Origin: Candidatus Parcubacteria bacterium
GTDB taxonomy: Bacteria; Patescibacteriota; Minisyncoccia; Phycocordibacterales; UBA918
Reading direction: 5' to 3'
Assembly (NCBI GenBank): GCA_046050355.1
Contig: JBJOPW010000004.1
Coordinates: forward strand, 5,800 to 69,799
DNA length: 64,000 nt
Below the pieces are notes generated by a model that searched no databases, was not told the origin of the DNA, and saw only the letters and a list, made by a program, of their open reading frames with translations. Positions 7,557-62,701 of the stretch are shown here, piece by piece. A program made the translations under genes and the position numbers. Position 1 is the stretch's first letter; each line of letters begins with the position of its first letter.

Positions 7557-7982
7557 TCAGGCTACTTGATGAGCCTCGATCTCAGCTTTGACCTTAGCAA
7601 GACGGTCGCTGTCCCATCCCTTGATGTCGAGTTGTGATAAAACCCAAACGACGTCAAGGAGTTCGAAGAAGGAATGGATCGTGTATCCTTCATGACGAAG
7701 ATGAGTGACCTCTCCTTGCTGCCGATCCATGAAGACGAAGTGGGTCATCGCCTTCACATCATAACCGTCGTTCGATTCGAGACGTTCGAGGGCTTCGAGT
7801 AACGAGCCGCCACTGGTCACCACGTTCTCGATGGTGAAATAGATGTGATGTTCCGGGTTGGGACGGCCGTTGACCCAGTAGCCACGTTGTCCGGTGGCAC
7901 CGTGAGTCTCCTTGAGCTTTTCGCGCATAATGCGATAGCCTAGCCGATGTCGACCGAACGTTCGAGGATCATAGTGGGTCAC
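7557..7982 (-). pseudogene. 3' fragment of a host type-I phosphoribosyltransferase (OPRTase/pyrE-like) gene, separated from its 5' part by the inserted element
   Basis: KETHGATGQ is HGEGG-like. The PRPP-binding motif IENVVTSGGSLLEALE matches VDDVITTGGT. The first ~4 codons (GTG, then PPM) come from element DNA across the attL core. Confidence 0.6.
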
Positions 7983-20765: not shown

Positions 20766-20776
20766 ACTCGATCAGG

Positions 20777-22655: not shown

Positions 22656-23420
22656 TTAGTTGCTAAAGTTCAGGCGAGCTTCGAGCTTGAGTATAGCATC
22701 TTTTCGTTCCCTGATCATGCTGTTCAGGGTGATCTTGCTTCCCATCTGGTGCTCGCGATTCAGCGTGGTCCGGAGCTCAGCAATCTCGCGTTCCAGTTTG
22801 TGAATCTCCCCGAGAATGACAGTGTGTTCCTTGGATGCCGAGATCGAGGCCGAAACGAACGTCCCGGTCCTGTCCGAGGTGATCAGCCCGATGACCTGGC
22901 TCTGGAATGCTTCATAGAGGGCATAAAAGTTGGTGGCGGGAAGCCGGTGAAGCTGAATGGCCTCCAGGAAGGCCGCCTGTGATGTCGAAGGCTTGTTCGG
23001 ATCGATCCATTCGGTCTGCCAACGATCCACCAACACGAGCTTGGACTTGTCGGCCTGGTTGATCCGCTTTTCCGCAACACTGATGGCGATCTTGCCCGCG
23101 TGCTCGAACGCCAGGATCAGCGGATATGGAATGGCCCGGTGCATGAAGGCTGCGACGCGATTGAGGCGAGCAGGATTCGACAGCTCGACCGAAAGGACGG
23201 CGATCTCCAGGTATTCTCGCTCGCTGTCCTGGAAGGGTGCGATGTTGATGGTGTCGGGCTTGAGCGTGTATTGCCAGCGGATGCGCCCGACATCCTCGCT
23301 CAGCGCCTTCCTGTCGGTCTGGTCTAGCTCTGCGTGATCGAGGAACATCTTCTTGTAGACCGGCTTGTCGAGCAAGCAGGCTTCAGGGATGCCAAGGCTG
23401 GAGAGGAAGGCGTCGATCAT
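22656..23420 (-). CDS. DUF4391-domain protein
   Basis: 254 aa. Sits between the SNF2 helicase and Mod in the same operon, a recurrent DUF4391 neighbourhood. Its start overlaps the helicase stop. Confidence 0.55.
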   Translation of the reverse strand: MIDAFLSSLGIPEACLLDKPVYKKMFLDHAELDQTDRKALSEDVGRIRWQYTLKPDTINIAPFQDSEREYLEIAVLSVELSNPARLNRVAAFMHRAIPYPLILAFEHAGKIAISVAEKRINQADKSKLVLVDRWQTEWIDPNKPSTSQAAFLEAIQLHRLPATNFYALYEAFQSQVIGLITSDRTGTFVSASISASKEHTVILGEIHKLEREIAELRTTLNREHQMGSKITLNSMIRERKDAILKLEARLNFSN

Positions 23421-26400
23421 GCTGCGGCTTGGATAACGAGGAAGCTCACAACCTCAAAATCGTCTCCGCCCTTGAGGTGATCTTTGGTGAGCGCCGTACC
23501 GCCACGGGAAAAGAGGCTCTCGACGCCCTTTTCTTCAGTCTTGCCGACGACGCTCTCTATGGCGCGATCCAGCAGCTCTCGATAGGCGCTCATATCGCGC
23601 CCGTTCTTGGTTTTGGTGTTAAGGGCGTCGATGCTGGCGCGGTCTAGCTCAGTCGCAGACGCGGCGAGCTTCTTGTATACGTCCAGGCTCTTTTTGGCCT
23701 GAAGGTGATTGAACACGATGGTGCCCGCCTCGGAGACATAGATGAGGTAGAATGGCGTGAGCGCGTAGCTGTCTTCGTTCTGCACCTTACCCTTAAGGTC
23801 GCGCAGGCAGAAGATCACGCCTGGCACGGCTTGGTCAATGTTGGGCGACACAACCGCGTGAAAGCCGGTTGGTGAGCCTTCCAGGCGCTTCAGGTTTTCC
23901 TTCATGAAGCTGGACAAATCCATGCGGAAGTCGTTCAGCGTCATGTCGGTGATGGAGACGCTGCCATCCATGTCCTCAAGATCGATGACGGCATCTTGGA
24001 GCTGCTGCATTTGTTTGCGACGGTATTCCAGATCGTTCATCTGCTTGTTTTCGTCATATTCGATGACGTTCTCTTCGCCGGTCGCGGAGATGTCCAAGAG
24101 CACCATGCGACCGCTCACGCGGGCTTCGAGGTTGATATACTCGTCGAGCTGCATGTTAGGCCAGAAATTGGTGAGCTGGATCGCGGCGTTCTTCGATCCT
24201 AAGCGGTCCACGCGCCCGAAGCGCTGGATGATCCGCACCGGGTTCCAGTGGATGTCGTAATTGACTAGCATGTCGCAGTCCTGAAGGTTCTGGCCTTCCG
24301 AAATGCAGTCCGTGGCGATCAGGATGTCGATGTCAGTCGTGGCATCGGGGTCGATCTTGTCGCGCTCTTTTGAAACCGGCGAAAAATTAGTCAGGATGCT
24401 GTTGAGGTCGCGCGGCAAGCCGTCGATGGTGCAGCGGTTGGTTCCACTACCCGTCACGAGCGCGCTGTGGAGGCCAAATTCCTTCAGCGCCCAGGTGTGT
24501 ATGTGCTTGAAAAGATATTCAGCCGTGTCGGAGAAGGCGGTGAAAACGATGACCTTGTTGTTGCCAGGGTTGATCGGCGTTTTGAGCTTGGCGGCAATGG
24601 TGTCCTTCAGCTTTTGGAGCTTGGCATCGTCCGCAGCCGCAATCTTCCGCGCCTCGTCGAGCAGGTAGCCTAAAAGGATGTGATCGGCTTCGAGGTCCTG
24701 ACGCATCCGGATGAGGTCCAGGTCCTGGATCAGCACCTTGACCTTTCGGCCAATCATAAGGTCTTCGAGTTCGGGAGAATCTGCCTCGATGTCCTCGATG
24801 AGCAATTCCTCGATTTCCGTAGCCTCATGAGCATCGATCTTCGCGAGGAAGTTGCCGACCTGAGCATGAATCTTCTCGACGGTGAGAGCGAAGGAATGGA
24901 TCGAGCTCTCCATCCGCTTAAGCATGTTGACGCGCATGAGGTGGATCAGGCTGCGCTCCCGGTCCACCTGCTTGAGCGTCGATTTCCCACCTTTGACTTG
25001 TTGGTCGTACTTGCGGCTGTAATCGTCCTGCTTGTCGGCGCGCACATAATCCAGGGGCGCGTAGGCCGCCAGAGAAAGCTTCTTGATTGAGCGGTTGATG
25101 TCCTTGAGCGGCGGGAACCGGCCATCCTTGTCGATGTCCGACTTCACATTCTGCGGCTTCAGACGCTCGGGGAATTTCCCGATTTCCGCAGTGTCGTAAT
25201 ACTTCTCGATATGCCGCCGCGACCGCGCGATGGTAAGCAGGTCGAGTAGCTTGAAATAGCCGAAGTTAAGGCTTTCGAGCAGCCCTTCGGTGGTGCGGCT
25301 TTCAGCCGGTAGCTTCAGCCAGGTGTTGAACTGCGTCTGCGCGCGACGGAGTGTAACTTCTATGCTTTGAATGCCCGCATCGGCTAGCGCTTTGTCCTGC
25401 CCTTCGGTGATGAAGGCGACCTGGTTCTTCAGGTCATTCAGGCGATTGTTCACCGGGGTGGCGGAGAGCATCAGGACTTTGGTTTTGACGCCTTTCCGGA
25501 TTACCTCGTCCATCAGCCGCTGGTAGCGAGTGATCTTGTCTTTGCTCGGGTTGTTGTTTCGGAAATTGTGGGACTCGTCGATGACGATGAGGTCGTAGTT
25601 GCCCCAGTTGATCGTCTCCAGGTTAATCTCACCGGAGCGACCCGTCTCGCGGCTCAAGTCTGTGTGGTTCAGGACATCAAAGTTGAAGCGATCAGCCGCA
25701 AGCAAGTTGCGCTTGTCGTTGATCGTGTAGACAGTCCAGTTTTCTCGGAGCTTCTTGGGCGCGAGCACCAGAACGCGGTCATTGCGCAGTTCGTAGTATT
25801 TTATGACGGCCAGCGCCTCGAACGTCTTACCCAAACCGACGCTGTCGGCGATGATGCAACCGTTGTAACGCTCAAGCTTGTCGATAGCGCCGAGAACGCC
25901 GTCTTTCTGGAACTTGTAGAGCTTGTTCCAAACTAACGTGTCCTTAAAGCCAGTCTTCGACCGTATGATGCTTTCCTCATCGATTTCCTCGATGAAGTCC
26001 CTGAAGATATTGAACAGGGTGATGAAGTAGAGAAGGTTCGCAGGCTTATCGGAGGCGAGGAAATCAAGGCTTTCAAGCACCGCATCCTTTGCATTGCGAA
26101 CGGCAGTTGGATCATTCCAGATTGTCTCGAACCAGTTGAGCAACTGCTTCGTTGCCTCCGGGTCTTTCGCCACGGTGTTCATCGCAAAGCTGTTGGATCG
26201 CACAACGCCAAGACCAGCGGCTGTAAAGTCCGAAGTGCCAGCGACGGCAACCACTTCACCAAGGGGTGGTTGAATGTGAAAAATATTCTGCGCGATAGGC
26301 GCTCCTGCGAGCTGTCGGACCTGAGCCTTCTTTCGAACCCATTCCGCACACTCGGCGGCGATGCGCTGGAGGTTCAGCTCATTCTTCAGGCCAATCTCTT

Positions 26401-26668
26401 CAGTGGTCCCGGCTAGAGGCAGCGGGAGAGCGGCATCAGGTCGCGCCAAGAGAATGCGCAAGTCCTGAACCTTGTTGAGCTCTGACTTCAGGGCGGAATA
26501 ACCAAAAACGGAAAACCAGGCGGTCAAAACCAACATTTTCGAGTCTGGGCTCAAGGCCGCTCGAAGTTCGTCTACGACCTTGCCGTGGACCTTGTTATCT
26601 AGAAGCATGTGGACTTTTGCCTTGCCTGAAGAGTCGTCGTATGTGGTTGATTTTTTATGGGAATCCAT
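23417..26668 (-). CDS. SNF2-family helicase with an N-terminal PLD-like nuclease domain
   Basis: SNF2 motifs I (ADSVGLGKT), II (DLIVIDESHNFRN), and V/VI (QRFGRVDRLGS). The N-terminal ~250 aa are PLD-like. Start placed at 26668 from an internal ATG with an AAAGG ribosome-binding site. Confidence 0.75.
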   Translation of the reverse strand: MDSHKKSTTYDDSSGKAKVHMLLDNKVHGKVVDELRAALSPDSKMLVLTAWFSVFGYSALKSELNKVQDLRILLARPDAALPLPLAGTTEEIGLKNELNLQRIAAECAEWVRKKAQVRQLAGAPIAQNIFHIQPPLGEVVAVAGTSDFTAAGLGVVRSNSFAMNTVAKDPEATKQLLNWFETIWNDPTAVRNAKDAVLESLDFLASDKPANLLYFITLFNIFRDFIEEIDEESIIRSKTGFKDTLVWNKLYKFQKDGVLGAIDKLERYNGCIIADSVGLGKTFEALAVIKYYELRNDRVLVLAPKKLRENWTVYTINDKRNLLAADRFNFDVLNHTDLSRETGRSGEINLETINWGNYDLIVIDESHNFRNNNPSKDKITRYQRLMDEVIRKGVKTKVLMLSATPVNNRLNDLKNQVAFITEGQDKALADAGIQSIEVTLRRAQTQFNTWLKLPAESRTTEGLLESLNFGYFKLLDLLTIARSRRHIEKYYDTAEIGKFPERLKPQNVKSDIDKDGRFPPLKDINRSIKKLSLAAYAPLDYVRADKQDDYSRKYDQQVKGGKSTLKQVDRERSLIHLMRVNMLKRMESSIHSFALTVEKIHAQVGNFLAKIDAHEATEIEELLIEDIEADSPELEDLMIGRKVKVLIQDLDLIRMRQDLEADHILLGYLLDEARKIAAADDAKLQKLKDTIAAKLKTPINPGNNKVIVFTAFSDTAEYLFKHIHTWALKEFGLHSALVTGSGTNRCTIDGLPRDLNSILTNFSPVSKERDKIDPDATTDIDILIATDCISEGQNLQDCDMLVNYDIHWNPVRIIQRFGRVDRLGSKNAAIQLTNFWPNMQLDEYINLEARVSGRMVLLDISATGEENVIEYDENKQMNDLEYRRKQMQQLQDAVIDLEDMDGSVSITDMTLNDFRMDLSSFMKENLKRLEGSPTGFHAVVSPNIDQAVPGVIFCLRDLKGKVQNEDSYALTPFYLIYVSEAGTIVFNHLQAKKSLDVYKKLAASATELDRASIDALNTKTKNGRDMSAYRELLDRAIESVVGKTEEKGVESLFSRGGTALTKDHLKGGDDFEVVSFLVIQAAA

Positions 26669-26774
26669 GCCTTTTCTAGTCTCATTATCATTCCACAGAT
26701 CGAGACTACAAGCAAAGGTTGGGTGACCGGATTCTGCAGACCCGGCCACCCGCGCTCCCACAAGGGGAGGGTCG

Positions 26775-26960
26775 TCAGGTCTCGCGGCGCGTGATCCGCT
26801 CTTGGAGCCATTCCAGCACTTCGCTTTCGACCCATCCGACCCGGTTCGGCCCGAGGTTTACCCGCTTGGGGAATGCTCCGACCTTTTCCAGCCTCGCGAC
26901 GTGTTGCGGCGAGTACAGGACCAACTCTTTGAGCTGGCGCTTTGAAAGTATCCTCATCAC
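26775..26960 (-). CDS. alpA: AlpA-family phage/island transcriptional regulator (Xis-like HTH)
   Basis: 61 aa; LSKRQLKELVLYSPQHVARLEKVGAFPKRVNLGPNRVGWVESEVLEWL is the AlpA motif. Confidence 0.7.
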   Translation of the reverse strand: MMRILSKRQLKELVLYSPQHVARLEKVGAFPKRVNLGPNRVGWVESEVLEWLQERITRRET

Positions 26961-27142
26961 GATCTCTCCATGGTGAAGAGCATCGCGATGCCCAGGGTTA
27001 CGACGTTCCTAGGTGTGAGGAGAGTAGTGCGAGATTAGTTGCCATGCCATAGAGTTGTGCCGCTCTTGATCCGTTCCTGCATGGCCAGTGTGCGCTTTGA
27101 TTGAACCGGGATAGGGTTTTCGATTAGACTCCTGCACATGAA

Positions 27143-27472: not shown

Positions 27473-27800
27473 TCTCGTGGTGCGATCATACTCTCAGGCG
27501 CGGCCACGGCTGCGCTTGGGCCGCCTAGATCGTTGATCGACCGGAGGTGGTCTAGAAGGTGGACCGGATTCTCAGCGCTCTACAAAAGCTATATTTTTCA
27601 GTGCATTGGAAAATTTAGTGGTGCCCAGAGCCGGAATGGGATTGCCGGAACATTCCAACACATAGCCTTGCATTTTCAATTTCTTAGACCAAGTCGCGGC
27701 TCCAAGGGCAACACATCGCCGAACATCGCTGAACATACAATCACAACCCTTGAGGTGGACTAAAAGGTGGACTAGAAAAGGTGGACTGCGGGAGGATTCG

Positions 27801-28961
27801 ATGGTTCTCTTGAACAGCCTGAACCCACTGAAAGCAAAGAACCTAGTCGCAGGAAAGCACGCTGACGGCCAAGGACTTTGGCTAGTGAAGAGTGAGCGCA
27901 CTCGGGGAAAGTGGGTTCTCCGCGTTGTCGTCCAAGGAAAGCGTCGGGAAATGGGTTTGGGCCGGTGGCCTGACGTCTCCATTGCTGAAGCGCGTGAGTT
28001 GGCCGCGGAGGCGCGGAGGAAGCTCCGGACAGGCATCGATCCGATAGCTCAACGTGTTGAAGGCCGGAAGAAAGTCGTACGCCTAACGGTACAACAAGCA
28101 GTGGACGCGTGCTTCGAGGCACGAAAAGCAGAACTCAAGAGCGACGGCGAGGCGGGTCGCTGGATGTCTCCGCTCTCAGTCCACGTGCTGCCGGTGATTG
28201 GAAAGACTGCGATAGAGGACGTCGATCAACATGTGCTGAAGAAAGCTTTGGAGCCCATCTGGCACTCAAAGGCCGACACAGCTCGAAAAGCTCTAAACCG
28301 CCTCAGCTTGACCCTAAAGCATGCGGCTGCACTTGGACTGGAAGTAGACCTCCAGGCAACGATGAAGGTCCGGGCTCTCCTAGGCAAACAAAGGCACGTG
28401 TCCGAACACATTCCTTCGATGCCATACAAAGACGCACCGGCCTTCTATCGCTGGCTCTCCGAACAGACCTCGGCGGCAGCCCTACCGCTTCGCTTCCTCA
28501 TTTTGACAGCTGCCCGAACTGGAGAGGTGCGCTATGCTCGGCATAGCTACATTGAGGACAAAGTTCTTACACTCCCTCCCGAGATCACAAAGACCGGGCG
28601 TGAACACAAAATTCCGCTTACATCGGAAGCCGCAGCAGTGATCAACGCTGCGAAGCTGCAAGACAGCCAGGACCTGTTGTTCCCTTCCCCAACCGGAAAG
28701 ACCTTCTCTGATGCGACAATGTCACGATTAATGCAGCGTGAAGGCCTAGTTTATAGGCCCCATGGCTTCAGGGCCACATTCCGGACGTGGGTCGAAGAAC
28801 AAACTGACACTCCTCTCGAAGTGGCTGAGGCCGCACTCGGGCACGTCGTAGAGGGACAGGTCATCCGGGCCTACCAACGATCTGATCGACTTGAGAAACG
28901 ACGATCCTTGCTAGTCAAATGGAGCAAGTATCTGCAAGACACAGGACACCCCAACCCATAG
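27801..28961 (+). CDS. int: Tyrosine site-specific integrase (P4-like phage integrase family)
   Basis: GGGAGGA ribosome-binding site before the ATG at 27801. The C-terminal catalytic region HGFRATFRTW ... LGHV ... RAYQR has the R..HxxR..Y signature. Confidence 0.85.
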   Translation: MVLLNSLNPLKAKNLVAGKHADGQGLWLVKSERTRGKWVLRVVVQGKRREMGLGRWPDVSIAEARELAAEARRKLRTGIDPIAQRVEGRKKVVRLTVQQAVDACFEARKAELKSDGEAGRWMSPLSVHVLPVIGKTAIEDVDQHVLKKALEPIWHSKADTARKALNRLSLTLKHAAALGLEVDLQATMKVRALLGKQRHVSEHIPSMPYKDAPAFYRWLSEQTSAAALPLRFLILTAARTGEVRYARHSYIEDKVLTLPPEITKTGREHKIPLTSEAAAVINAAKLQDSQDLLFPSPTGKTFSDATMSRLMQREGLVYRPHGFRATFRTWVEEQTDTPLEVAEAALGHVVEGQVIRAYQRSDRLEKRRSLLVKWSKYLQDTGHPNP

Positions 28962-29943: not shown

Positions 29944-31272
29944 ATGCGCATCGCAATGGTTTACCCAGAAGTCTTCGACCTTGCACGGTTCAATGAAAAG
30001 CGGAAAGAGTTTCCGCCTTTTGGGGTAATGTACCTATCCGCCATGATGGAGCAGGCAGGGCACGTTGTCCAAGTATTTGCCATATCCTTCGAAACGAGTG
30101 CGATCGATTTCCGAGGCTTCGATGCAGTAGGATACTCCATCCCATCATCAGCAACTTTTGGTATAACAAAGAAGGTACGGTTTGCTAGTAAGTACGACGA
30201 GGGGGCACTGATCATGGCTGGTGGAGTACACGCAAACCTTTACCCACTGCAGACTCTGGATGAATTGGAACCGGACGTTGTTGGCATTGGTGAGTGCGAA
30301 CAGACCATACTCGACATCTTGGAGAGGGGTAAGAATGCGGATTTTGGTAACATCCTCGGAGTCGCCTTTAAGAAGAACGGGGAAGCAGTGAAGACACCTC
30401 CTCGTCGAGTAGATAAAGACATTGACTGGCTTCCACTTCCATCCCGACACCTCCTGCCTCGGTCAGACATTGTGATGAGCAATCGACTATCTAACACGGA
30501 CATCGAAATGGCCCACGTCATGTTCACACGTGGATGCCCGTTTCCGTGCAGGTTCTGTGCAGTTGCGCAAACTAAGATACAGTATCGCTCAGGCGCCAGC
30601 GCAAGACGTGAAATAGTTCACCTAATGGAAACTTATGGAATAGGTGGTTTCGCCATTGTCGATGACAATTTCATCGTTGACAAGCGTAAGGTTCATGACG
30701 TAGCCGAAAGCATCCAAGACCTCGGTGTAAAATGGTCGGCTCTTTCCCGAGTCGACACCATTGACAAAGAACTGCTCACGGCAATGGCCTCATCCGGATG
30801 CATCGAAATTAAGTTTGGAATGGAGTCAGGGAGTCAGAGAATTCTTGATGCAATGCAGAAAAACACGACCCCGGAACAGATCCTAGAGGCCGCAAGGCTT
30901 TCATATGAAGCCGGCATCAAGGCCAAGTTCTTTATTGTTCATGGTTATCCTGGTGAAAACATGGAGACCACAGCCGAGACAATCGCCCTCCTTGATAGAG
31001 CTAAAAGATATGTAGATCGAGTTTCGCTCTTCAGGTTTGCCCCATTGCCGGGGACATATGTCTACAATCACCCTGAAGAGTTCGGCCTCCGGGGAACGGA
31101 CCGGCAAGCAGACTGGGATGGCAACTGGGATAAATATCATATTTATCACAATGCGTACCACTGGTGGGGAACGGATGATCAATTTGAAGAGCTGAACAGG
31201 GCGCACACGGAGATCTCCAACTATATTGACGAAACTTGGCCAGCGACTTTTCAACCGCCCCAAAATGTGTAA
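29944..31272 (+). CDS. B12-binding-domain radical SAM protein (class B radical SAM family)
   Basis: N-terminal B12-binding-like Rossmann region, then FTRGCPFPCRFCAV (CxxxCxxC). 442 aa. Confidence 0.8.
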   Translation: MRIAMVYPEVFDLARFNEKRKEFPPFGVMYLSAMMEQAGHVVQVFAISFETSAIDFRGFDAVGYSIPSSATFGITKKVRFASKYDEGALIMAGGVHANLYPLQTLDELEPDVVGIGECEQTILDILERGKNADFGNILGVAFKKNGEAVKTPPRRVDKDIDWLPLPSRHLLPRSDIVMSNRLSNTDIEMAHVMFTRGCPFPCRFCAVAQTKIQYRSGASARREIVHLMETYGIGGFAIVDDNFIVDKRKVHDVAESIQDLGVKWSALSRVDTIDKELLTAMASSGCIEIKFGMESGSQRILDAMQKNTTPEQILEAARLSYEAGIKAKFFIVHGYPGENMETTAETIALLDRAKRYVDRVSLFRFAPLPGTYVYNHPEEFGLRGTDRQADWDGNWDKYHIYHNAYHWWGTDDQFEELNRAHTEISNYIDETWPATFQPPQNV

Positions 31273-31282
31273 AACTTAGAGA

Positions 31283-32029
31283 ATGGAGAGGATTGGAACT
31301 GTAGAAGCGGTGTTCCTACGCAAGGCACATGGCCGTGCTGTTGAGGAATCAACAGTCCTCAACTTAGTGGCTGATTTCGGGATCGTAGGGGATATCAACT
31401 TCTCGGCTTCGTCGCCTCGCCATTTGCTACTTAAGAGGATTGGACGTCCAGGCGATTGGACGGACAACGCCGGTTACTTCAATGAAAACGTTTCTTTCAC
31501 TTCTGAAAGTCTGAATTCGCTTCGTCCGGGAGACATCGTAAGAGTTGGCTCCGCAACTCTCCTCGTTCGTTCAAAAAATGAGCGGTGCAACATTTTTGCG
31601 CCAGAGGTCCGCGTGGCACGAGGCCTTCATTGTGTTTGCATAGACGCCGGATCCATTCGTCGTTCGGATGACATCATAAAGCTCGGTAGCGTTTCTATCG
31701 CAGAGGACAGTCGCGCGGCACTATTGGTAACGGGCCTCAGGGCTGTTCCGCTCGGAAGAGTGGTGACTTTTGAAGATGCATGCACTATGATTGGTGGCAG
31801 CCGCCCACACTTGCGGATCATTCCAAGACTGCTAAAGATTGCAATTACTTTGCATCCAACTGGGGTTCCATTTCACAGGTTAGTCAAATCTAAGGGTGAT
31901 CTAATTGACAACATTGTCACTGATCAGATGCTCCTCCTGGCGGCGGAAGGTATATCGACTTCAAACGGAAGAACTGTAAATCTTCAGTTCCGTCATGTTT
32001 TCGGGAGAAACCCATTTTGCGAAATGTAA
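31283..32029 (+). CDS. MOSC-like beta-barrel domain protein (putative)
   Basis: 248 aa. GD...PGDIVRVGSATLLVRSKNERCNIF resembles the MOSC PCxxL Cys motif. Moderate. Confidence 0.4.
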   Translation: MERIGTVEAVFLRKAHGRAVEESTVLNLVADFGIVGDINFSASSPRHLLLKRIGRPGDWTDNAGYFNENVSFTSESLNSLRPGDIVRVGSATLLVRSKNERCNIFAPEVRVARGLHCVCIDAGSIRRSDDIIKLGSVSIAEDSRAALLVTGLRAVPLGRVVTFEDACTMIGGSRPHLRIIPRLLKIAITLHPTGVPFHRLVKSKGDLIDNIVTDQMLLLAAEGISTSNGRTVNLQFRHVFGRNPFCEM

Positions 32030-32433
32030 GCTGCTTTGTCTCGATGGCAATTGAAGCTCGTGAAGCACTTAGTGAAGAGCTCTCCGCAATTAAGAGTGTG
32101 TGCAGTAGATTTGGTGTTAGAGCCCATGTCTTCCTAGATGAATACTCATTTGAGAAAGGCAAAGAATCCCAAATGATGGCGGAGGTCGTTTCGTGTATTA
32201 ATGGCTGTGATTTCTTGATTGCTGAAGTAAGCAAGAAGGCGATTGGGGTGGGGTGTGAGGTTGGCATCGCTGCAGCATTGGGAAAGCCGGTGATCTATTG
32301 TCGGCAGGCAGGGAGTCCAGCTTCGCTGACGGTTGGCGGACTGGCAAGTTTTACTCTGACTTATAGTGAAGCCAACGAACTTGCGCGGAAACTAAGTTTC
32401 GTATTAGAGAACAGGTTCTTCGAGTCCGACTAG
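32017..32433 (+). CDS. Nucleoside 2-deoxyribosyltransferase-like (NDT/SLOG-fold) protein
   Basis: CDFLIAEVSKKAIGVGCEVGIAAALGKPVIY matches the NDT-family D..IA..G...E.G.A.A.GKPV motif. An alternative start at 32044 is possible. Confidence 0.5.
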   Translation: MRNVSCFVSMAIEAREALSEELSAIKSVCSRFGVRAHVFLDEYSFEKGKESQMMAEVVSCINGCDFLIAEVSKKAIGVGCEVGIAAALGKPVIYCRQAGSPASLTVGGLASFTLTYSEANELARKLSFVLENRFFESD

Positions 32434-32548
32434 ATTTCGATGCTACTTGGACCGGATCCCGATCTTTTATCTGGGTGTCCGGCATCTAGTGTCTTAGTCA
32501 AGGCAATGAGAATTCATTGAAGTGAGGAAGTTTGAGAAGTGTTTCGAA

Positions 32549-32557
32549 GTGGGTCAC
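32549..32557. repeat. Internal third copy of the att core gtgggtcac, embedded in a ~25-bp att-arm-like sequence
   Basis: gagaagtgtttcgaagtgggtcaca (32534..32558) versus gagaagtgttccgatgtgggtcaca at the right junction: ~23/25 identical. Confidence 0.55.
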
Positions 32558-32811
32558 ATTTTGGAAGTTTCGGAGCCTTCCTCGTTGCTCCGGCTCATTG
32601 TTTAACTTGATGACGGTCGCCGTCACGGGTCAGTGTGTTGATCGTACAGGATCCATGAGTGGGGTTTCGAAGCGGTCCCTGCATACCTTGGAGTTCCGGG
32701 TAGCTCGGGTGGAGGATAGTGATATTCGAGGCGCTCTCCCGTGTGGAGTGCTCGCCAATGACAGTTTGGTCGCGCATGCTGTCAGGCGCAGGACGCTAGA
32801 AGACCCTCATT

Positions 32812-32846
32812 GACAACTCATGGTATAGTATCTATGTCTTACTAGC
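32812..32846 (+). promoter_or_regulatory. Putative sigma70-like promoter for the Ubl-E2-E1 operon
   Basis: TTGACA, a 17-bp spacer, then TATGTC; an AGAGG ribosome-binding site 7 nt before the ATG at 32865. Confidence 0.3.
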
Positions 32847-32864
32847 TAAATGTAGAGGTAAACC

Positions 32865-33107
32865 ATGTCCGAGAAATACAAATTCAAAGTTGAGAATGAA
32901 ACCTACGAGTGGGGCGATGCAACCATCACCGCAGCGGAAGTACGCGGGGTCGGTCCAGGGATTCCTGATAGCATGGATCTCTTTGTGAAGCTTCCCGGAA
33001 AGCCTGCGCGCTTAGTGTCGGATCCAGGCGAAGTCTTTGATCTCTCGAAGCCGGGAATCGAGAAATTCTTTGCGCAGAACTCATCGTCGGAAGCGGGCGC
33101 CAACTAA
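32865..33107 (+). CDS. Ubiquitin-like beta-grasp protein (Multiubiquitin-type single domain)
   Basis: 80 aa. Pattern KFKVENETYEWGDATITAAEVRG...PGIEKFF resembles prokaryotic Multiubiq/Ubl partners of E1/E2/JAB operons. The stop is 2 bp before the E2 gene. Confidence 0.45.
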   Translation: MSEKYKFKVENETYEWGDATITAAEVRGVGPGIPDSMDLFVKLPGKPARLVSDPGEVFDLSKPGIEKFFAQNSSSEAGAN

Positions 33108-33109
33108 TT

Positions 33110-33517
33110 ATGCCGTTATTGTTCGAAGATGACTACGAGTACTTGAAAAGTACTGGGCTAAAGTACGATGAGTACACGGACCAGCGCTTCTTGGTGGTCA
33201 GGGCTTACCCCGTTCCGGAGGGTAAGTACATCTTCGAAGGACAACCGGTTCGGACGGTCGATGTCCTGTCCATTATCCCGCCAAACTACAACACCGAAGG
33301 CTGCGACATGTTCTGGGTGCACCCAGCGATATCGCGTGCTGATGGAAAGCCCATTCCGGCAACTGGCGGCGACGACAGAGTCTTCGACAACACGACCTTC
33401 GTTCGTTGGTCCAGGCACTGGCCTGCCGGTCGATGGAGACCCAAGGTTGATACAATAGAGACCATATTGAGCCGTATCGACTGGGCCTTGCATAACCCAG
33501 ACCCTGCTGAAGCATGA
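33110..33517 (+). CDS. Prokaryotic E2-like (UBC-fold) protein
   Basis: 135 aa. IIPPNYNTEGCDMFWVHP has the HPN-like ... Cys arrangement. Overlaps the E1 gene by 4 bp (ATGA coupling). Confidence 0.5.
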   Translation: MPLLFEDDYEYLKSTGLKYDEYTDQRFLVVRAYPVPEGKYIFEGQPVRTVDVLSIIPPNYNTEGCDMFWVHPAISRADGKPIPATGGDDRVFDNTTFVRWSRHWPAGRWRPKVDTIETILSRIDWALHNPDPAEA

Positions 33518-34965
33518 GCCAACCCCGCATCACCCTCCTGCAATCACATCGAGAGCGCTTGGAGCGTTGGTTACCGTCTCATCCAGAGCATCACGAACGT
33601 GCCGCTGTAGTACTGTTCCGCTCGTTTGCACGAGAGGTACTGGAACAGACTCAATCAGAACGGCTCGTCTCGGTCGACGTGATCGAAATGACTGATGACT
33701 GGCTCGTGGAGAGCTCAGTCATCAGTGTCAAAGTCAACCTTCGAAAGCTTGTGGATCTGTATTTCCGCTGTGAGCAGGAGGGCTTACACTTAGGCTTCGT
33801 ACATAGTCACCCACTTGGTGCTGACGCCTTCTCGGGTCAGGACGATCAGAACGAACAAAACATCTTGCGGGGCTACGCTGGCTGCAATGGACGAGACTCA
33901 AGATTGGTGGCTCTTGTCTACGTCGACGGCGAGTGGATTGGTCGGGTGCGTTATGCGACCAAGCCAACCGAGAGCTCGCCTGTTCGTCACATACTTACAC
34001 TGGGGGAAACCCTTGCTGTACACCATTTGACCAACCCGGAGGGTGATCTGGCTACACTGGAGCGACAGGCGGCCGCTTTCGGTCGACCATTTAATCAAAA
34101 GCTTCAGTCTCTTAGAGTTGCAGTGGTTGGGTGCGGAGGTACCGGCTCACCAACTGCTACCCTTCTGGCTCGCGCAGGTGTCGGCGAACTTATTCTCATT
34201 GATGGTGACAACCTAGAGGAAAGCAATCTCAACCGGGTTCGAGGCTTGCGGAGAGATGATGTCGGACACAACAAGGCAGAGAGGCTGTGTTCGTACATCC
34301 GCTCCTTATCCCTGCCAACATCCGTGTCGTTTGTCCCCAATTATCTTGAGGACAATCGGGCAGCTGTCGACGCACTTTCCTCAGCCGATGTCGTATTCGG
34401 CTGCACCGACACCGTGGCAAGTCGAGAACTCTTAAACGAGGCTCTGTACTATTATGGGTTTGTGCTCATTGATTGCGGACTGTCGGGAGAAGTTGCCAGC
34501 ACTGCTGATGGGAAACCAAGGCTCATTGAGCATCGCGGTCGCGTAAGCACCGTGCAGCCCGAAACTGGAGCTTGCCTGCGCTGCCAAGGGGTCGTCACAG
34601 ACAACAAACTGAGATACGAGAGAGCGGTCAACGAGAACCCAGAGCTCAAGAAGCTCGACGCCAAAACGCTGCTCCGCGAACATTATCTAGTTGGCGGAGG
34701 CGAAGCCGCTCCGGGGGTCGGACCGTTCACTAGCGCAACTGCCGATCTTGCTGTCTCCTCACTATTTGAACTCATTCATCCATACAGACAACTGGGCGGC
34801 GATTTCCGTCCTGACAATATTTGGCAAGATTACTTGCATATGACTTATCACAGTAACGAGCCCCGAAACCTTTCTGCCGATTGTTATTGCTGTGGCACGC
34901 GCGCGATCCTACTGAAGCGTGAGCGTCAAGTTCTACTGGACAGACCGGCACTTGGTACGATTTGA
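33514..34965 (+). CDS. JAB/MPN (JAMM) metalloprotease fused to an E1-like ThiF/MoeB adenylyltransferase
   Basis: JAMM motif HLGFVHSHPLGADAFSGQD (HxHx7Sx2D). ThiF Rossmann motif VAVVGCGGTGSPTATLLARAGVGELILIDGD. C-terminal CxxC pairs. Confidence 0.8.
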   Translation: MSQPRITLLQSHRERLERWLPSHPEHHERAAVVLFRSFAREVLEQTQSERLVSVDVIEMTDDWLVESSVISVKVNLRKLVDLYFRCEQEGLHLGFVHSHPLGADAFSGQDDQNEQNILRGYAGCNGRDSRLVALVYVDGEWIGRVRYATKPTESSPVRHILTLGETLAVHHLTNPEGDLATLERQAAAFGRPFNQKLQSLRVAVVGCGGTGSPTATLLARAGVGELILIDGDNLEESNLNRVRGLRRDDVGHNKAERLCSYIRSLSLPTSVSFVPNYLEDNRAAVDALSSADVVFGCTDTVASRELLNEALYYYGFVLIDCGLSGEVASTADGKPRLIEHRGRVSTVQPETGACLRCQGVVTDNKLRYERAVNENPELKKLDAKTLLREHYLVGGGEAAPGVGPFTSATADLAVSSLFELIHPYRQLGGDFRPDNIWQDYLHMTYHSNEPRNLSADCYCCGTRAILLKRERQVLLDRPALGTI

Positions 34966-34966
34966 T

Positions 34967-35401
34967 ATGAATCTAGGCATTCCCAAGATATTTCTAAACT
35001 TCTGGAAGAAAGCACGGCTTCCAGAAATCCAAGAACCTACCAATCATGTGAGGCACTATCAAGCTGCCCTGATCTTGGAAAGAACACCAAGCAACTCGGC
35101 AATCGGAGATCGCGATTTTGTATTCGTGATCTATGAGACCGTTCCACGGTGGGCACTGTTTCGATGCCCCTGCGGCTGTAGCGAAGTCATCAGCCTACCC
35201 CTAGCTGCTCCACACAATCCTCGATGGGCCGTCTATGTCGACGAGGATGGCTTCGCTTCTCTGTATCCATCCGTTTGGCGCAACACTGGCTGCATGAGTC
35301 ACTTTGTAATTCGCTCAGGATGTGTATTCTGGGCGAATAAGAGCGGGGTCAGCCCATTTGAAGCCAGCCCAAATTTCTATAAGCCTCGCATTCCCAAGTA
35401 G
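34967..35401 (+). CDS. Cys-rich putative zinc-binding protein, fourth gene of the Ubl operon
   Basis: CPCGC...GCMSHF...SGC cysteine clusters. The ATG at 34967 lies 1 nt after the E1 stop; a longer ORF from 34919 is possible. Confidence 0.4.
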   Translation: MNLGIPKIFLNFWKKARLPEIQEPTNHVRHYQAALILERTPSNSAIGDRDFVFVIYETVPRWALFRCPCGCSEVISLPLAAPHNPRWAVYVDEDGFASLYPSVWRNTGCMSHFVIRSGCVFWANKSGVSPFEASPNFYKPRIPK

Positions 35402-35415
35402 AAGGGACGTGAGCT

Positions 35416-36837
35416 CTAGTATTCCCAGCGAACAAAATAGCCAGACCGTCCATAGCAGTCGTATCCGCGCTTGTCCTTATGTGCCTTGAGCATTGTCCCG
35501 GAGCTCTTCCTCTTGAACTCTTTTCCGCAGTAGGTACATGCGATCACCTGAAGGGGTCCACCAGAGTAGGTTGAAGGCCTGCGATTCACTCGACCCGCCG
35601 AACTTCCTCCTCGCTTTGTCTGGGCACCAAGCCGACCGCCTCCTCCAAAGTAGGAATTTTCTGGCAGCTCACCTGCTTTTGACAGTTCGACCTCGAAGCG
35701 CGGTTCGAACTTTTCTTCAAGTATCTGTGGCTTCTCAACTTTTGGATTAACCAGGGACTTGATTCCGGTTGACCCTGAGGCACCTCCAGTTCGATCCCAC
35801 ACATAGAAGTATTCGCGCGGAGACCCGTCCGATGGACGTTTGTAGCTTAGAGCGTAAGGTTCGACGACCCTCTCGTATCCGTCATAGGTTAGTCGGATAA
35901 GCCGTTGTTGAGACCCGGCTTCCAAGAAGACGTTACGAAGTTCTGCCGGAAAGAAGGCATCGCTTATGCGATCTGCCATACCGCTCGTTTCGAATACACT
36001 ATCGACGAACCGCGTGTACGCTTCTGTCGCGGTGTCGAAGTCTATTTTGCTTGCTGCCGGGCAAACTATGTATTTCTCCCATGCCGCCCGGAAGAAGGCC
36101 ATGGGGAGACCAAGGAGTATTTGCCGAGCTGAACCCGGACTTCGTTCAAAGATGGTCTTCTTGAGAAAGACGCTTGCAATTGTTGATCGATCAAGGTCAA
36201 TCCGATCATCAAAGAACGCAGCGTAAACTAGATCGTAGAGATCATGGGAGTGACGACGTTGCAGCAAGCATTTGAGCTTAGATGCCATGCCCTCTTCGAG
36301 AGCAACACATCTAAGATTTACTCTGCAGACATCTGAATCCGAATATGGATGAATAAGTGGAACCGTGCTCACTGGAAGATACAAGCGGTCGAACTCTGTC
36401 ACATCCATCCGAACTGAAATTTCCAGCGCGCTTTTCTGGCCATAGAAATCTTCGAAGAAGACCTTTCCCTTGTAGATTTTTCTGTCGGTGTTTTTGCCGA
36501 GATTGGCCCGTGCGGCTTCTTTGAAAGAGCTTCTCTCACTTACAAACTTGATACCCGATACAGCTTGAGCCATCTTGCAGCTACGTTCAATTTGAGCAGT
36601 CAGTTCATCCAAGTCAACTGCACGTTCAGTTGAGAAATCCAGGTCAGAGGAGAACCTGGTGTTCGGAAAGTACGCTTTTCGGAAGCAGTTTCCGCCCTTT
36701 AGGATGAGAAGGTCACTGAGATACTCATTTTGGTATATTGCAAACAGGAGCCAGCCGAAGACGTAGTCACGCTGAACATTCGAGGTATTGATCTCGAATT
36801 CAGCAGATTTCTGGTCGATTTCATCTCTCTCGATCAT
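35416..36837 (-). CDS. AbiEii/DUF1814-type nucleotidyltransferase fused to a WYL-like domain and a C-terminal zinc ribbon
   Basis: NTase motif LKGGNCFRKAYF...SSDLDFS. WYL-like LIRLTYDGYERVVEPYAL...EYFYVWD. C-terminal CTYCGKEF...C. Confidence 0.7.
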   Translation of the reverse strand: MIERDEIDQKSAEFEINTSNVQRDYVFGWLLFAIYQNEYLSDLLILKGGNCFRKAYFPNTRFSSDLDFSTERAVDLDELTAQIERSCKMAQAVSGIKFVSERSSFKEAARANLGKNTDRKIYKGKVFFEDFYGQKSALEISVRMDVTEFDRLYLPVSTVPLIHPYSDSDVCRVNLRCVALEEGMASKLKCLLQRRHSHDLYDLVYAAFFDDRIDLDRSTIASVFLKKTIFERSPGSARQILLGLPMAFFRAAWEKYIVCPAASKIDFDTATEAYTRFVDSVFETSGMADRISDAFFPAELRNVFLEAGSQQRLIRLTYDGYERVVEPYALSYKRPSDGSPREYFYVWDRTGGASGSTGIKSLVNPKVEKPQILEEKFEPRFEVELSKAGELPENSYFGGGGRLGAQTKRGGSSAGRVNRRPSTYSGGPLQVIACTYCGKEFKRKSSGTMLKAHKDKRGYDCYGRSGYFVRWEY

Positions 36838-37081
36838 GTGACTACTCTACACCAAATCCCAAGCTACGGCACCTTAAGGCGATGATGACGGTTTGGCCAA
36901 GGAACACAACCCGTATGGCACCTCTATGCTGCATCTGCTGTGTCTTGAGGCTTTTGATACTTCAAATTGTACTGCCACTGCGGGATCTTATTTGGAGTAC
37001 ACGCTGGTCTTTTAGGACAGAAGGTTAGAAGGTGGCTCAGGGACGTCTTCATCTCCTTTAGAGTTCGAGAAGTGTTCCGAT

Positions 37082-37090
37082 GTGGGTCAC
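37082..37090. repeat. attR core: 9-bp direct repeat gtgggtcac (right junction)
   Basis: Matches 7974..7982. Host PRTase sequence (AASVTH codons) starts here on the minus strand. Confidence 0.6.
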
Positions 37091-37532: not shown

Positions 37533-38672
37533 ATGAAAGCGCCTGAAGTAAGTACAATGAATGAGGCTCGCGCGGCTCATGCGGAGTTCACTTTGCAACG
37601 TGCCGCTTTTTCATTTTTTCAAGAAAATATAGAACTGTGTTCCAAACCACCTCGTGATGTAATGCCAGAGATTATTGCAGAGTTGCCAGAGTCGCCCAAA
37701 TTACTCTCGAAACAAGAGATGGATCTATGGCTCAAAGAGAATACCTCAATGAGCGGTCAGCGGTTACATATGGACGTCGGGGCGCCATCAAAATTGGAAT
37801 CCTATATTTTGTTTTTACTCATGACAACCAGTCCAAAAAGTACACAATTTGAAACAACGGATATAGAAACTACAGGTGACAGATTTTCATTAGTTGATAG
37901 TATACAAATTTTGCGTGATGAGGTACGAACTAAGCGTTTCCTGATGGGTATCAAAGAGGCAGTTGCAAACCTTCTTACAACCAAAGATAATATACTTGTT
38001 TGCGATGCCGGTTGCGGAGCGATTCCTATTTTAGGTATACAAGCAGCATTGCAATCGCCAAATGTGCAGGTTGTTTGTATTGAGAGCAATCCCGAATCGG
38101 TTATTATGGCGCGTGAATGTATTAATGCGTTTAATCTTGGTAATCAAGTGTTGGTTATAGAAGGAGACGCACGTGAATATAAGCCAAAGAGAGAAATTGA
38201 TCTTGTTATTTCTGAGACAATGGATATTGGCTTACTTAATGAGCCAATGTGTGACATTATGTCGAGTTTAAAACCTTTCACATCAAATGATAGCATTTTC
38301 ATTCCAGAACAAGTAGAAGTATTGGCAACAGCATTAACAGCGTCTGATTATGATAGTGCTGATAGTTACGCCCTTATTGATAAGGATTGTTGGCCAGTTA
38401 TTCAAACAAAGTGGCAAGTTATCGGTAGCTACAAAGCAGGTGATTTGAGTCCGTATTTTGAAAGTGATATTTCGGTACCGCAGAATAATGAAGCAAAAAT
38501 TCCACTAATAAGTTCAAGGGTAAAAATTCATGATTCAGTGCCAACTCTCGATTTTTGCGAAAGCCGCCTTACAGCATTTTTGCCTTTGCCTGGAAGCCTC
38601 CAGTCGCGTGATAGTAAACTACATATTTCGTATCGAGCGGGTGATTCGATCAAAGAAGTACAAATAGCATGA
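37533..38672 (+). CDS. Class I SAM-dependent methyltransferase, PRMT-like
   Basis: Motif I VCDAGCGAIPI; post-I IDLVISETMDIGLLNEPM resembles the PRMT motif. Confidence 0.5.
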   Translation: MKAPEVSTMNEARAAHAEFTLQRAAFSFFQENIELCSKPPRDVMPEIIAELPESPKLLSKQEMDLWLKENTSMSGQRLHMDVGAPSKLESYILFLLMTTSPKSTQFETTDIETTGDRFSLVDSIQILRDEVRTKRFLMGIKEAVANLLTTKDNILVCDAGCGAIPILGIQAALQSPNVQVVCIESNPESVIMARECINAFNLGNQVLVIEGDAREYKPKREIDLVISETMDIGLLNEPMCDIMSSLKPFTSNDSIFIPEQVEVLATALTASDYDSADSYALIDKDCWPVIQTKWQVIGSYKAGDLSPYFESDISVPQNNEAKIPLISSRVKIHDSVPTLDFCESRLTAFLPLPGSLQSRDSKLHISYRAGDSIKEVQIA

Positions 38673-38700
38673 CCAGCATAAATGTATACATAGCAATGTT

Positions 38701-39318
38701 ATGCAATACGGCGTAGATGTGGCGAGCACCCGGCTTGATGATCTCGATAAACGAGTGTTGGCAGATGTGCGTGAACGTATCGGTCGTGTGGAGGAGGTGT
38801 CAGTGCTTGATGTTGGGTGCGGGCAGGGTGGCTTGGCGCTGGTACTGACTCAAGCTGGAGCCATTGTTACTGCACTTGATATTCCTGACTACAGTTCGGC
38901 CTTTCAAAATGAGACTGCTGCGACAATTGAATTTGTTCAGGCAGATGTCCGTGAGTGGATACAAAATAATACTGTTCAGTTTGATATGGTCGTGCTGCAA
39001 CGCGTACTCCATTATCTACCGAATCATGAAGCTAAGAAGCTTCTGAGAGCACTGCGAGATGTGACCGCTACACTCTATCTGTCAGTGACCGGCACGACGA
39101 CTGCCATCGCGAGTCACTATGACAAAGTCCACGAGCTAATCGAGAGGCGGTGGGGTGTACTTGATACAGTGGGGCAGGAATTATTTTCTATCACTGCACC
39201 GGTGTGTCTCTATAGTAAGGAGGAGTTACTTGAGCTCCTCAAGGACTGTGGGTGGGAGGTAGTGTGGTCGCGAGTGTCTGATTTTGGGAATATTAAGGTG
39301 GTGGCTCGAGGGAGTTAA
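38701..39318 (+). CDS. Class I SAM-dependent methyltransferase
   Basis: VLDVGCGQGGLALVLTQAGAIVTALDI motif I; 205 aa. Confidence 0.6.
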   Translation: MQYGVDVASTRLDDLDKRVLADVRERIGRVEEVSVLDVGCGQGGLALVLTQAGAIVTALDIPDYSSAFQNETAATIEFVQADVREWIQNNTVQFDMVVLQRVLHYLPNHEAKKLLRALRDVTATLYLSVTGTTTAIASHYDKVHELIERRWGVLDTVGQELFSITAPVCLYSKEELLELLKDCGWEVVWSRVSDFGNIKVVARGS

Positions 39319-62573: not shown

Positions 62574-62701
62574 AGATAGCTACTCGTTTCCGTACCTGGA
62601 AACGAGTGCATGTATTGTACAGAAATTTCTATAATATTCAACCCAAGGATATTTGGGTATTGGGGAGGGCATTTTGGTAGCTGCTTGCTATAATTATCTA
62701 T

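Follow-up and report, generated by a model that had tools for sequence, protein, structure and literature searches.

In 2006, Iyer, Burroughs and Aravind described a "6e" operon (Genome Biol 7:R60, Table 1; PMC1779556) made up of a ubiquitin-like protein (Ubl), a separate Cys-less E2/RWD-like protein, a JAB domain joined to an E1, and a small metal-binding protein. The Ubl was a polyUbl, with a solo Ubl in one species, and the clusters were noted as mobile (PMC1779556). The E2-like domain was classed as inactive because the conserved Cys was absent, and the Cys-rich protein was predicted to be a zinc-finger target recogniser, but biochemistry later revised both predictions. Ye, Gong, Chambers and Corbett renamed the operon Bub in 2024 and reported crystal structures and biochemistry for the homologue from Citrobacter sp. 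RHBSTW-00271 (10.1101/2024.11.21.623953; PDB 9ea4, 9ea8, 9eae, and 9eav). According to this work, the family uses oxyester intermediates, the JAB domain cuts after a conserved Gly, and BubE is a protease. Bub operons matter because they carry out Ubl conjugation without any catalytic cysteine.

We analysed a 64,000-nucleotide stretch of DNA (hereafter, the window) from a Candidatus Parcubacteria bacterium (assembly GCA_046050355.1, contig JBJOPW010000004.1, positions 5,800 to 69,799), in which four genes occupy positions 32865 to 35401 of the + strand. These are bubA (32865–33107, 80 aa), encoding a Multi_ubiq-type Ubl with a single β-grasp domain; bubB (33110–33517, 135 aa), encoding a stand-alone UBC-fold E2; bubCD (33514–34965, 483 aa), encoding a JAB/JAMM peptidase fused to a ThiF-type E1; and bubE (34967–35401, 144 aa from its ATG), encoding a DUF6527/BubE protein. 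An earlier note on this DNA had proposed a Ubl/E2/JAB::E1/Cys-rich conjugation operon of the Bub class with gaps of 2, −4, and 1 bp between tightly coupled genes. The ORF coordinates agree with these gaps, and the Pfam profile search that the note had suggested recovered all four families, with matches above the gathering scores for each protein: Multi_ubiq (5.6e-7) for BubA, Prok-E2_E (1.5e-33) for BubB, Prok-JAB (1.4e-5, residues 25–118) and ThiF (9.8e-37, residues 183–424) within the single ORF of BubCD, and DUF6527 (PF20137, 3.9e-20) for BubE. It is therefore very probable that the operon is an intact Bub operon (formerly 6E/DUF6527) of the Type I kind, with a JAB–E1 fusion and with Ubl and E2 unfused.

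The same note had regarded the JAB–E1 fusion, the missing Gly-Gly, and the additional Cys-rich gene as unusual, and had suggested a poorly characterised variant. All three features define the 6E/Bub family, whose architecture was described in 2006 and whose structures and biochemistry were reported in 2024 (PMC1779556; 10.1101/2024.11.21.623953). The family is already described, and the locus raises no question that published work on the Citrobacter and E. coli operons has not taken up; it is one more intact Bub example, from an uncultured bacterium, in a mobile region rich in defence genes. Sequences identical to the copy in the window were found only on Logan metagenome contigs, and the best relative of BubCD in a species genome is 58% identical. 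No PADLOC or NCBIfam model matched BubA, BubB, or BubE.

The assignment of BubA as an 80-aa, β-grasp, Multiubiquitin-like protein was borne out by the Pfam match, by its best PDB match (9cd2, E. coli BubA, 5.1e-9), and by a fold search with an AF2 model (pLDDT 82, with residues 75–80 forming a disordered tail), whose top matches were bacterial multi-ubiquitin/BubA domains, with BubA/BilA β-grasp domains such as 9ea8_B (TM 0.77–0.81) among the matches. The protein ends in SSEAGAN, and S75-x-A77-G78 is invariant among homologues and followed by 0 to 2 variable residues. Gly78 is thus the conserved C-terminal glycine of a Bub-family Ubl, a single glycine being the family trait in Citrobacter as well. 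Given the invariant S-x-A-G and the variable residues behind it, Ala79-Asn80 is a probable pro-peptide, and its removal by the JAB domain, as the earlier note had supposed, is plausible. The Citrobacter protein differs in having three β-grasp domains, which form filaments, and in carrying a fused E2 where BubA of the window has a tail of two residues.

BubB is a distant relative of its characterised Citrobacter counterpart (around 28% identical), in keeping with the generally low identity between the proteins of the two systems. Nevertheless, it matches PDB 9eae_C (3.6e-10, with the RWSRH and DMF motifs aligned), and its AF2 model (pLDDT 89.5) has 9eae_C as its best fold match (TM 0.77–0.81, rmsd 2.2 Å), followed by eukaryotic E2s, which agrees with the UBC-fold, E2-like protein first proposed. 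The proposed PPNY...C active site held only in part: the string P57–N61 and C65 are present, but C65 is not conserved and cannot be read as catalytic. Its position is occupied by C, G, or N in the 32 close homologues compared and aligns with Leu in Citrobacter BubB. In the same 32 sequences, D66 and R99-W100-S101-R102-H103 are invariant, and S101/H103/D66 align with Citrobacter S333/H335/D299, which are experimentally required (10.1101/2024.11.21.623953). Thus, BubB shows a UBC fold with an invariant Ser and no conserved catalytic Cys, as expected of a Bub-family E2, and Ser101, His103, and Asp66 are its predicted catalytic residues.

These observations bear on a classical thioester cascade, in which the Ubl would be held as a thioester first on an E1 Cys and on E2 Cys65, the chemistry used by Bil and by eukaryotic E1/E2 pairs. 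A Cys does lie five residues past PPNYN, an HPN-like motif, and the E1 has an invariant C354/C357 pair where its crossover loop starts, but the variability of C65, the invariance of the Ser/His/Asp set, and the properties of BubCD set out below make such a cascade highly improbable. They also bear on whether the locus is catalytic at all. Iyer et al. regarded the E2-like domain of 6e operons as lacking catalytic activity (PMC1779556), so the protein could be an inactive, RWD-like Ubl binder through which no Ubl is transferred, or the copy in the window could be a remnant. Against this, every catalytic residue is intact at the locus, the frames are unbroken and their starts coupled, and substitutions relative to a 98–99% identical metagenome copy are biased towards third codon positions in all four genes, which are under purifying selection; we hold a non-catalytic or decayed system to be scarcely credible.

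The Type I arrangement, with JAB at the N-terminus of the E1, is what we found in BubCD, where a JAB/JAMM domain spans approximately residues 1–170 and a ThiF-type E1 adenylation domain residues 180–483. The JAMM residues are E28, H97, H99, S107, and D110, so the HxHx7Sx2D motif recognised at the outset is present as H97/H99/S107/D110, and the E1 Rossmann motif (GxGxxG, 206–211) and CxxC pairs (C354/C357 and C457/C460) were also confirmed. Although the match to Citrobacter BubCD (PDB 9ea4) is distant (9.5e-24), R241 aligns with R227, Y391 with Y370, and H97/H99/D110 with H91/H93/D104. Across 25 homologues, the JAMM residues, GxGxxG, R241, D299, the crossover-loop Y391, and the Cys4 site are invariant or nearly so, Y391 being strictly invariant.

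A catalytic Cys had been expected in the E1. Instead, BubCD has the invariant Tyr391 that marks a Bub-family E1, and its crossover loop holds no Cys other than the C354/C357 pair. Together with C457/C460, this pair forms a CxxC...CxxC pattern, which we read as a structural zinc site like that known from MoeB/ThiF-type enzymes; C354 and C357 are probably zinc ligands. Since the pair lies where the crossover loop starts, one of its Cys residues may have a catalytic role. However, Citrobacter BubCD lacks Cys opposite C354/C357 in the alignment and functions without a crossover-loop Cys (10.1101/2024.11.21.623953), which argues against thioester chemistry. The retention of the invariant CxxC...CxxC, whose first pair is absent in Citrobacter, is a further difference between the two systems.

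The E1 domain is a member of the ThiF/MoeB superfamily, and the label "molybdopterin/thiamine biosynthesis adenylyltransferase" is attached to many of the copies in databases, so the locus might encode a sulfur-carrier/cofactor system (ThiS/MoaD with ThiF/MoeB) whose small protein is thiocarboxylated rather than conjugated. However, the NCBIfam ThiF/MoeB equivalogs all scored far below their cutoffs with BubCD (for example, 83.8 against 275 bits), the Ubl belongs to Multi_ubiq and not to ThiS/MoaD, and the operon encodes a protease, an E2, and a JAB domain. Moreover, the 193 neighbouring ORFs at around 50 loci included no MoaE, ThiG, ThiH, or similar gene, and the cofactor-biosynthesis context that the earlier note had named as a possible refutation was not observed. 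We give a cofactor system almost no chance. A tblastn search of BubCD against phages returned only matches at the ThiF/MoeB level.

The fourth protein, to which no role had been assigned, is BubE, reported to be a protease that has a Ser-His dyad and a C4 zinc site (10.1101/2024.11.21.623953); newer precomputed Pfam labels in fact name PF20137 "BubE". Its CPCGC cluster, noted previously, is C67/C69/C71, and C109 completes the C4 site. S102 and H112 are kept in all 54 homologues and the four Cys in 49 to 54 of them, with the same spacing as Citrobacter C57/C59/C61...S92...C99...H102. Thus, the C4 site and Ser-His dyad of a Bub-family DUF6527 protein are both present, as in Citrobacter. BubE carries a hydrophobic N-terminal extension. 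Translation could alternatively begin at a GTG (34919); the gene caller took the ATG on identical and near-identical contigs.

Our analysis shows the genes, their folds, the conservation of the catalytic residues and of the gene order, purifying selection, and an accessory, mobile setting. We infer the chemistry of the whole pathway by homology to the Citrobacter system, and the cascade should proceed through oxyester and not thioester intermediates. The JAB domain of BubCD would trim Ala79-Asn80 from the 80-aa BubA precursor, exposing Gly78, which the E1 domain would adenylate with ATP (R241, D299). Tyr391 of the crossover loop would then attack the adenylate to form a BubA~Tyr oxyester, from which BubA would move to Ser101 of BubB, activated by His103 and Asp66, and BubB would place it on lysines of target proteins. 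Finally, BubE, as a Zn(Cys)4 Ser102-His112 protease, would strip BubA from conjugates and so limit the pathway.

The one respect in which the locus departs from the 2024 wording of Type I Bub is the separation of bubA and bubB, which are fused in Citrobacter and lie in different frames here: the TAA stop of bubA (33105–33107) is followed by 2 bp and then by the bubB ATG in another frame. We considered a frameshift artefact and rejected it on two grounds: the split holds throughout the clade, with Ubl and E2 in separate ORFs at all 50 informative species-genome loci, and the coupling between start and stop codons is close. All the full-length homologues found with BubB of the window stand alone, as does the E2 in 87 of the best 150 family representatives. 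Ye et al. 2024 define Type I by a Ubl fused to the E2 as a BubAB pre-protein, and since this fusion is absent, we file the locus as "Type I-like with unfused bubA/bubB". The 6e row of 2006 already described the Ubl and the E2 as separate genes (PMC1779556). For annotators, the useful correction is that split loci match or outnumber those with the fused BubAB by which Type I is defined. The order bubA-bubB-bubCD-bubE, shared with Citrobacter, recurs over many phyla, and bubE was present in 51 of the 56 loci examined, the other five being contigs that ended before it could appear. One fused member, P0210 (218 aa), was observed inside the close clade.

It is unlikely that the unfused, single-β-grasp clade with its Cys4 E1 represents a mechanistically distinct Bub lineage, or that its operon partners the AbiEii-like nucleotidyltransferase described below. 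Without a fused E2 to cut off, the JAB domain of the unfused clade would have only 0 to 2 residues to remove, and in many members none. If the clade were distinct, JAB may thus mainly be a deconjugase or provide a regulated priming step.

Other described systems resemble the locus less closely. Type II Bub (6E.2), as in the BubA/BubBD/BubE operon of E. coli ZDHYS365, shares the Multi_ubiq Ubl and the DUF6527 protease and forms its oxyesters on a Tyr of the E1 and a Ser of the E2, as the window's proteins would by analogy, but its E2 is fused to the E1, usually without JAB, and Lys and His, not His and Asp, lie beside the E2 Ser. Bil (BilABCD) likewise has Ubl, E2, JAB, and E1 in one operon and conjugates its Ubl to proteins, but its JAB is a separate protein, its large E1 (IAD-AAD-CYS) and its E2 both use a catalytic Cys, it has no DUF6527 gene, and its antiphage function has been demonstrated. 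In the window, by contrast, JAB is fused to the E1 in one 483-aa protein whose adenylation domain is single, the E2 Cys is variable, and a DUF6527 gene is present. Type II CBASS also combines a ThiF-type E1 adenylation domain with a JAB peptidase (Cap2/Cap3), but Cap2 is an E2–E1 fusion that conjugates a CD-NTase, and there is no Ubl gene. The PADLOC "E1-E2" models matched only the adenylation core of BubCD (residues ~166–311), and neither a CD-NTase family member nor an effector gene was found among the operon's neighbours.

The placement on a mobile cassette held: the region is mobile, as in Citrobacter, and rich in defence genes, and a metagenome contig (L001) carries bub genes that are 98–99.5% identical in another mobile context with differing outer flanks. 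No att direct repeat of tRNA-Leu(CAA) was found over 26.5–40.5 kb, and blastn of the 4.56-kb segment shared with L001 against plasmids gave only short AbiEii similarities. At around 50 loci, the neighbours included WYL/HTH regulators, toxin–antitoxin genes, recombinases, restriction–modification genes, and lineage-specific housekeeping genes.

An AbiEii-like nucleotidyltransferase gene (35416–36837) converges on the operon, 14 bp from the bubE stop, and its product could be a sensor, effector, or target of the Bub operon within a composite module. It adjoins the operon in both the window and L001 despite their differing outer flanks, the shared segment contains no AbiEi partner, and its product has a C-terminal extension with weak WYL-like and zinc-finger matches. 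However, the adjacency occurs only in these two among the roughly 50 loci scanned, the WYL match is marginal and absent from the Pfam search, and the zinc-finger matches are themselves marginal. In addition, the gene differs by 7.2% from its L001 copy, whereas the bub genes differ by 0.5–1.7%, a gap that indicates separate histories, and we judge such a module very unlikely.

The biological role of the operon probably lies in phage defence or in responding to stress. The earlier note had listed Bub among the established antiviral systems, but Ye et al. found that none of the Bub operons they tested protected against phage (10.1101/2024.11.21.623953), and our literature search found no later report of such protection.

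Neither a convincing promoter nor a dedicated regulator was found adjoining the operon. The scan for sigma-70 and terminator consensus sequences gave nothing usable before bubA or past bubE, and no operator-like inverted repeat was found in the leader. This conserved, non-coding leader (32528–32864, + strand) is 96.4% identical to that of L001, and the similarity begins exactly at 32528. A 93-codon ORF within it (32532–32813) was rejected as a gene, having no Pfam match and substitutions distributed 2/4/4 by codon position, with no third-position bias. A possible extended −10 promoter (TGG TATAGT, 32821–32829) was read by eye, and since nothing turned up on the + strand in the consensus promoter scan, we infer it from the sequence. 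Closer to the gene, a Shine-Dalgarno GAGG lies at 32855–32858, 5′ of bubA.

The operon that the earlier note picked out is a real system and was rightly recognised as one, but it is an ordinary Bub/6E operon, in the unfused bubA/bubB arrangement first described in 2006. All four open reading frames exist as reported and lie on the forward strand, namely bubA (32865-33107, 80 aa), bubB (33110-33517, 135 aa), bubCD (33514-34965, 483 aa), and bubE, which ends at 35401 and could start at a GTG at 34919 or an ATG at 34967. The ATG, chosen by the gene caller on identical and near-identical contigs, yields the 1-bp gap originally reported. The successive junctions read TAA-tt-ATG, an ATGA overlap, and TGA-t-ATG, and GAGG lies 6 nt upstream of the bubA ATG. 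Pfam assigns all four products above gathering scores and far beyond chance: BubA to Multi_ubiq (5.6e-7), BubB to Prok-E2_E (1.5e-33), BubCD to Prok-JAB (1.4e-5) and ThiF (9.8e-37), and BubE to DUF6527 (3.9e-20).

Such 6E/DUF6527 operons were renamed Bub (bacterial ubiquitination-like) in 2024 preprints from the Corbett laboratory, in which Type I comprises a Ubl fused to an E2 (BubAB), a JAB domain fused to an E1 (BubCD), and the DUF6527 protein BubE (Ye et al. 2024, bioRxiv 10.1101/2024.11.21.623953). The separate bubA and bubB genes of the window are the sole departure from that definition. When these operons were first described from bioinformatic evidence (Iyer et al. 2006, Table 1, row 6e; PMC1779556), their components were given as a Ubl (polyUbl or solo), an E2/RWD-like protein lacking the Cys, JAB fused to E1, and a small metal-binding protein, with fusion of the Ubl to the E2 noted only "in some species". 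Thus, the JAB-E1 fusion and Cys-rich fourth gene, once thought unusual, were already part of the 2006 description.

Nor is the separation of bubA and bubB peculiar to the window. Among 54 species-genome loci collected with a BubCD profile, 50 were informative, and all 50 carry bubA and bubB as separate, closely abutting frames, with no fusion found; they span Alpha-, Beta-, Gamma-, and Deltaproteobacteria as well as Bacteroidota, Firmicutes, Cyanobacteria, Nitrospirales, Gemmatimonadales, and Planctomycetes. The full-length homologues retrieved with BubB are all stand-alone (131-140 aa), and among the best 150 representatives of the E2 family (50% identity), 87 are stand-alone and 58 have an N-terminal extension, with a recognisable Ubl domain in 46 of these. 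A further fusion state occurs in a Bacteroidota MAG (L013, 6977-8824; P0171), where BubCD is joined to BubE (613-616 aa, ThiF plus PF20137). At another locus (L038, 5086-6597), a BubA domain terminates a 504-codon frame, suggesting a Ubl with an N-terminal extension of about 420 aa.

The AF2 model of BubA (pLDDT 82) ends in a floppy tail at residues 75-80 and matches bacterial multi-ubiquitin domains, among them Citrobacter BubA 155-229. Since S-x-A-G (or S-T-P-G) is invariant near the C-terminus of BubA homologues and is followed by nothing or by one or two freely varying residues (AN, VN, MA, TN, ND, LW, and others), the alignment identifies Gly78 as the predicted reactive end, and Ala79-Asn80 appears pro-peptide-like. 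The missing Gly-Gly, which had been listed as an oddity, is normal in this family, and the processing by JAB proposed alongside it is reasonable by analogy with Citrobacter, where the JAB domain cleaves BubAB directly after the conserved Gly (bioRxiv 10.1101/2024.11.21.623953).

In that characterised relative, catalysis proceeds via oxyesters, the Ubl being carried by an invariant E1 crossover-loop Tyr (Y370) and an invariant E2 Ser (S333) that works with H335 and D299, while conjugates are stripped by the protease BubE, which has a Zn(Cys)4 site and a Ser-His dyad (bioRxiv 10.1101/2024.11.21.623953). The window proteins conserve this apparatus. BubCD matches Citrobacter BubCD (9ea4) at 9.5e-24, and after correction for the 2-residue tag offset of the PDB chain, R241 falls on R227, Y391 on Y370, and H97/H99/D110 on H91/H93/D104; across 25 homologues there is no variation at H97, H99, S107, D110, G206/G208/G211, R241, D299, or Y391, and almost none at E28. 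The hit of BubB to Citrobacter BubB (9eae_C, 3.6e-10) places "RWSRH" and "DMF" in register, and the sole strong PDB match of its AF2 model (pLDDT 89.5) is likewise 9eae_C (TM 0.77-0.81, rmsd 2.2 A), with eukaryotic E2s next. All 54 BubE sequences keep S102 and H112, and nearly all keep C67/C69/C71/C109, with spacing identical to that in Citrobacter. The C354xxC357...C457xxC460 pattern, in our reading the structural zinc site known from MoeB/ThiF-type enzymes, is invariant in this BubCD clade (25 homologues); where its first pair aligns, Citrobacter BubCD carries no Cys.

The catalytic-cysteine assignment of the earlier note does not hold: in 32 homologues, among which D66 and R99-H103 never change, residue 65, its proposed E2 active site, varies between C, G, and N. 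A thioester cascade is unlikely. An oxyester relay is the most likely mechanism; gene anatomy, residue conservation, and selection are observed directly, and we infer each chemical step by homology: JAB would trim Ala79-Asn80, the E1 would adenylate Gly78, and the Ubl would pass through Tyr391 to Ser101 of BubB and on to target lysines, with BubE as the deconjugating enzyme. The earlier note held that unrecovered folds, or a consistent sulfur-carrier or cofactor setting, would count against its reading. Pfam recovers the folds. At about 50 related loci the operon has no uniform set of neighbours: WYL regulators occur at 7 and XRE-type HTH proteins at 4, along with HipA, resolvases, transposases, and type I restriction-modification genes. 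No MoaE or ThiG-type genes appear among them, so neither of the two outcomes occurred; sulfur-carrier chemistry is unlikely. The Mesorhizobium loci are explained by a common housekeeping site, a fumarase with an AsnC regulator. The fumarase gene lies upstream of the operon in L007, L008, L011, L014, L019-L022, and L036, most of which also have the AsnC-type regulator upstream and most a class-III aminotransferase downstream, suggesting one shared chromosomal site rather than repeated independent insertions.

The sequence recurs unchanged, with identical gene order, on a Logan metagenome contig. A JGI metagenome contig (L001) matches 32528-37090 at 95.5% identity with different flanks. The bub genes are 98.3-99.5% identical between the window and L001, with substitutions biased to the third codon position, which shows selection on them; an inactive remnant is unlikely. 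A 473-aa AbiEii-family nucleotidyltransferase is encoded on the reverse strand (35416-36837), convergent with bubE and 14 bp away from the bubE stop codon. Although it adjoins the operon in both the window and L001, identity drops to 92.8% in this gene and to 78% in the far flank, so the shared segment is a mosaic; no AbiEi partner was found within it, and functional coupling of the operon to AbiEii is improbable. The C-terminal extension of AbiEii (about 190 aa) has only marginal WYL-like (PADLOC 9e-4) and zf-BED (0.002-0.005) matches.

The 2024 authors found no phage protection by Bub (bioRxiv 10.1101/2024.11.21.623953). The surroundings of the operon here are mobile and defence-rich. A large stretch (7969-28961) holds a serine recombinase (7969-9399), TrwB/DUF87-like ATPases, a Replic_Relax (relaxase-like) protein, a type III restriction-modification system (17772-22639), a DUF4391 protein with an SNF2 helicase (22656-26761), H-NS, and a tyrosine integrase (27750-28961), and parts of it resemble the L001 backbone at 70-74% identity in a different order. 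Within it, a 60-aa Phage_AlpA frame (26775-26957), called on the identical contig, is overlapped by a strong Rfam match to "Ruegeria trans44 sRNA" (RF02649, 174.6 bits, 26729-26990, reverse strand), a family that may really be the conserved AlpA region of integrative elements. Directly upstream of the Bub leader, a forward-strand cluster of three genes (29944-32433) encodes a B12-binding radical-SAM protein (PADLOC candidate PDC-M51A, 2.4e-11), a 248-aa MOSC-like protein whose Pfam matches, to MOSC and the MGMT DNA-binding domain, are sub-threshold, and a protein resembling nucleoside 2-deoxyribosyltransferases. This cluster is possibly a candidate for defence by nucleotide or DNA modification. 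Two SAM-dependent methyltransferase genes (37533-39318) lie in a low-GC stretch (0.42-0.46) between the AbiEii gene and tRNA-Leu(CAA), and no att repeat of that tRNA was found across 26.5-40.5 kb. Further along, on the reverse strand at 62263-62577, a tRNA gene missed by ARAGORN has its anticodon loop split by a full-length group I intron (Rfam RF00028, 79 bits, 62311-62553); splicing in keeping with the group I rules (5′ exon end U62542, intron end G62306) gives tRNA-Thr(UGU).
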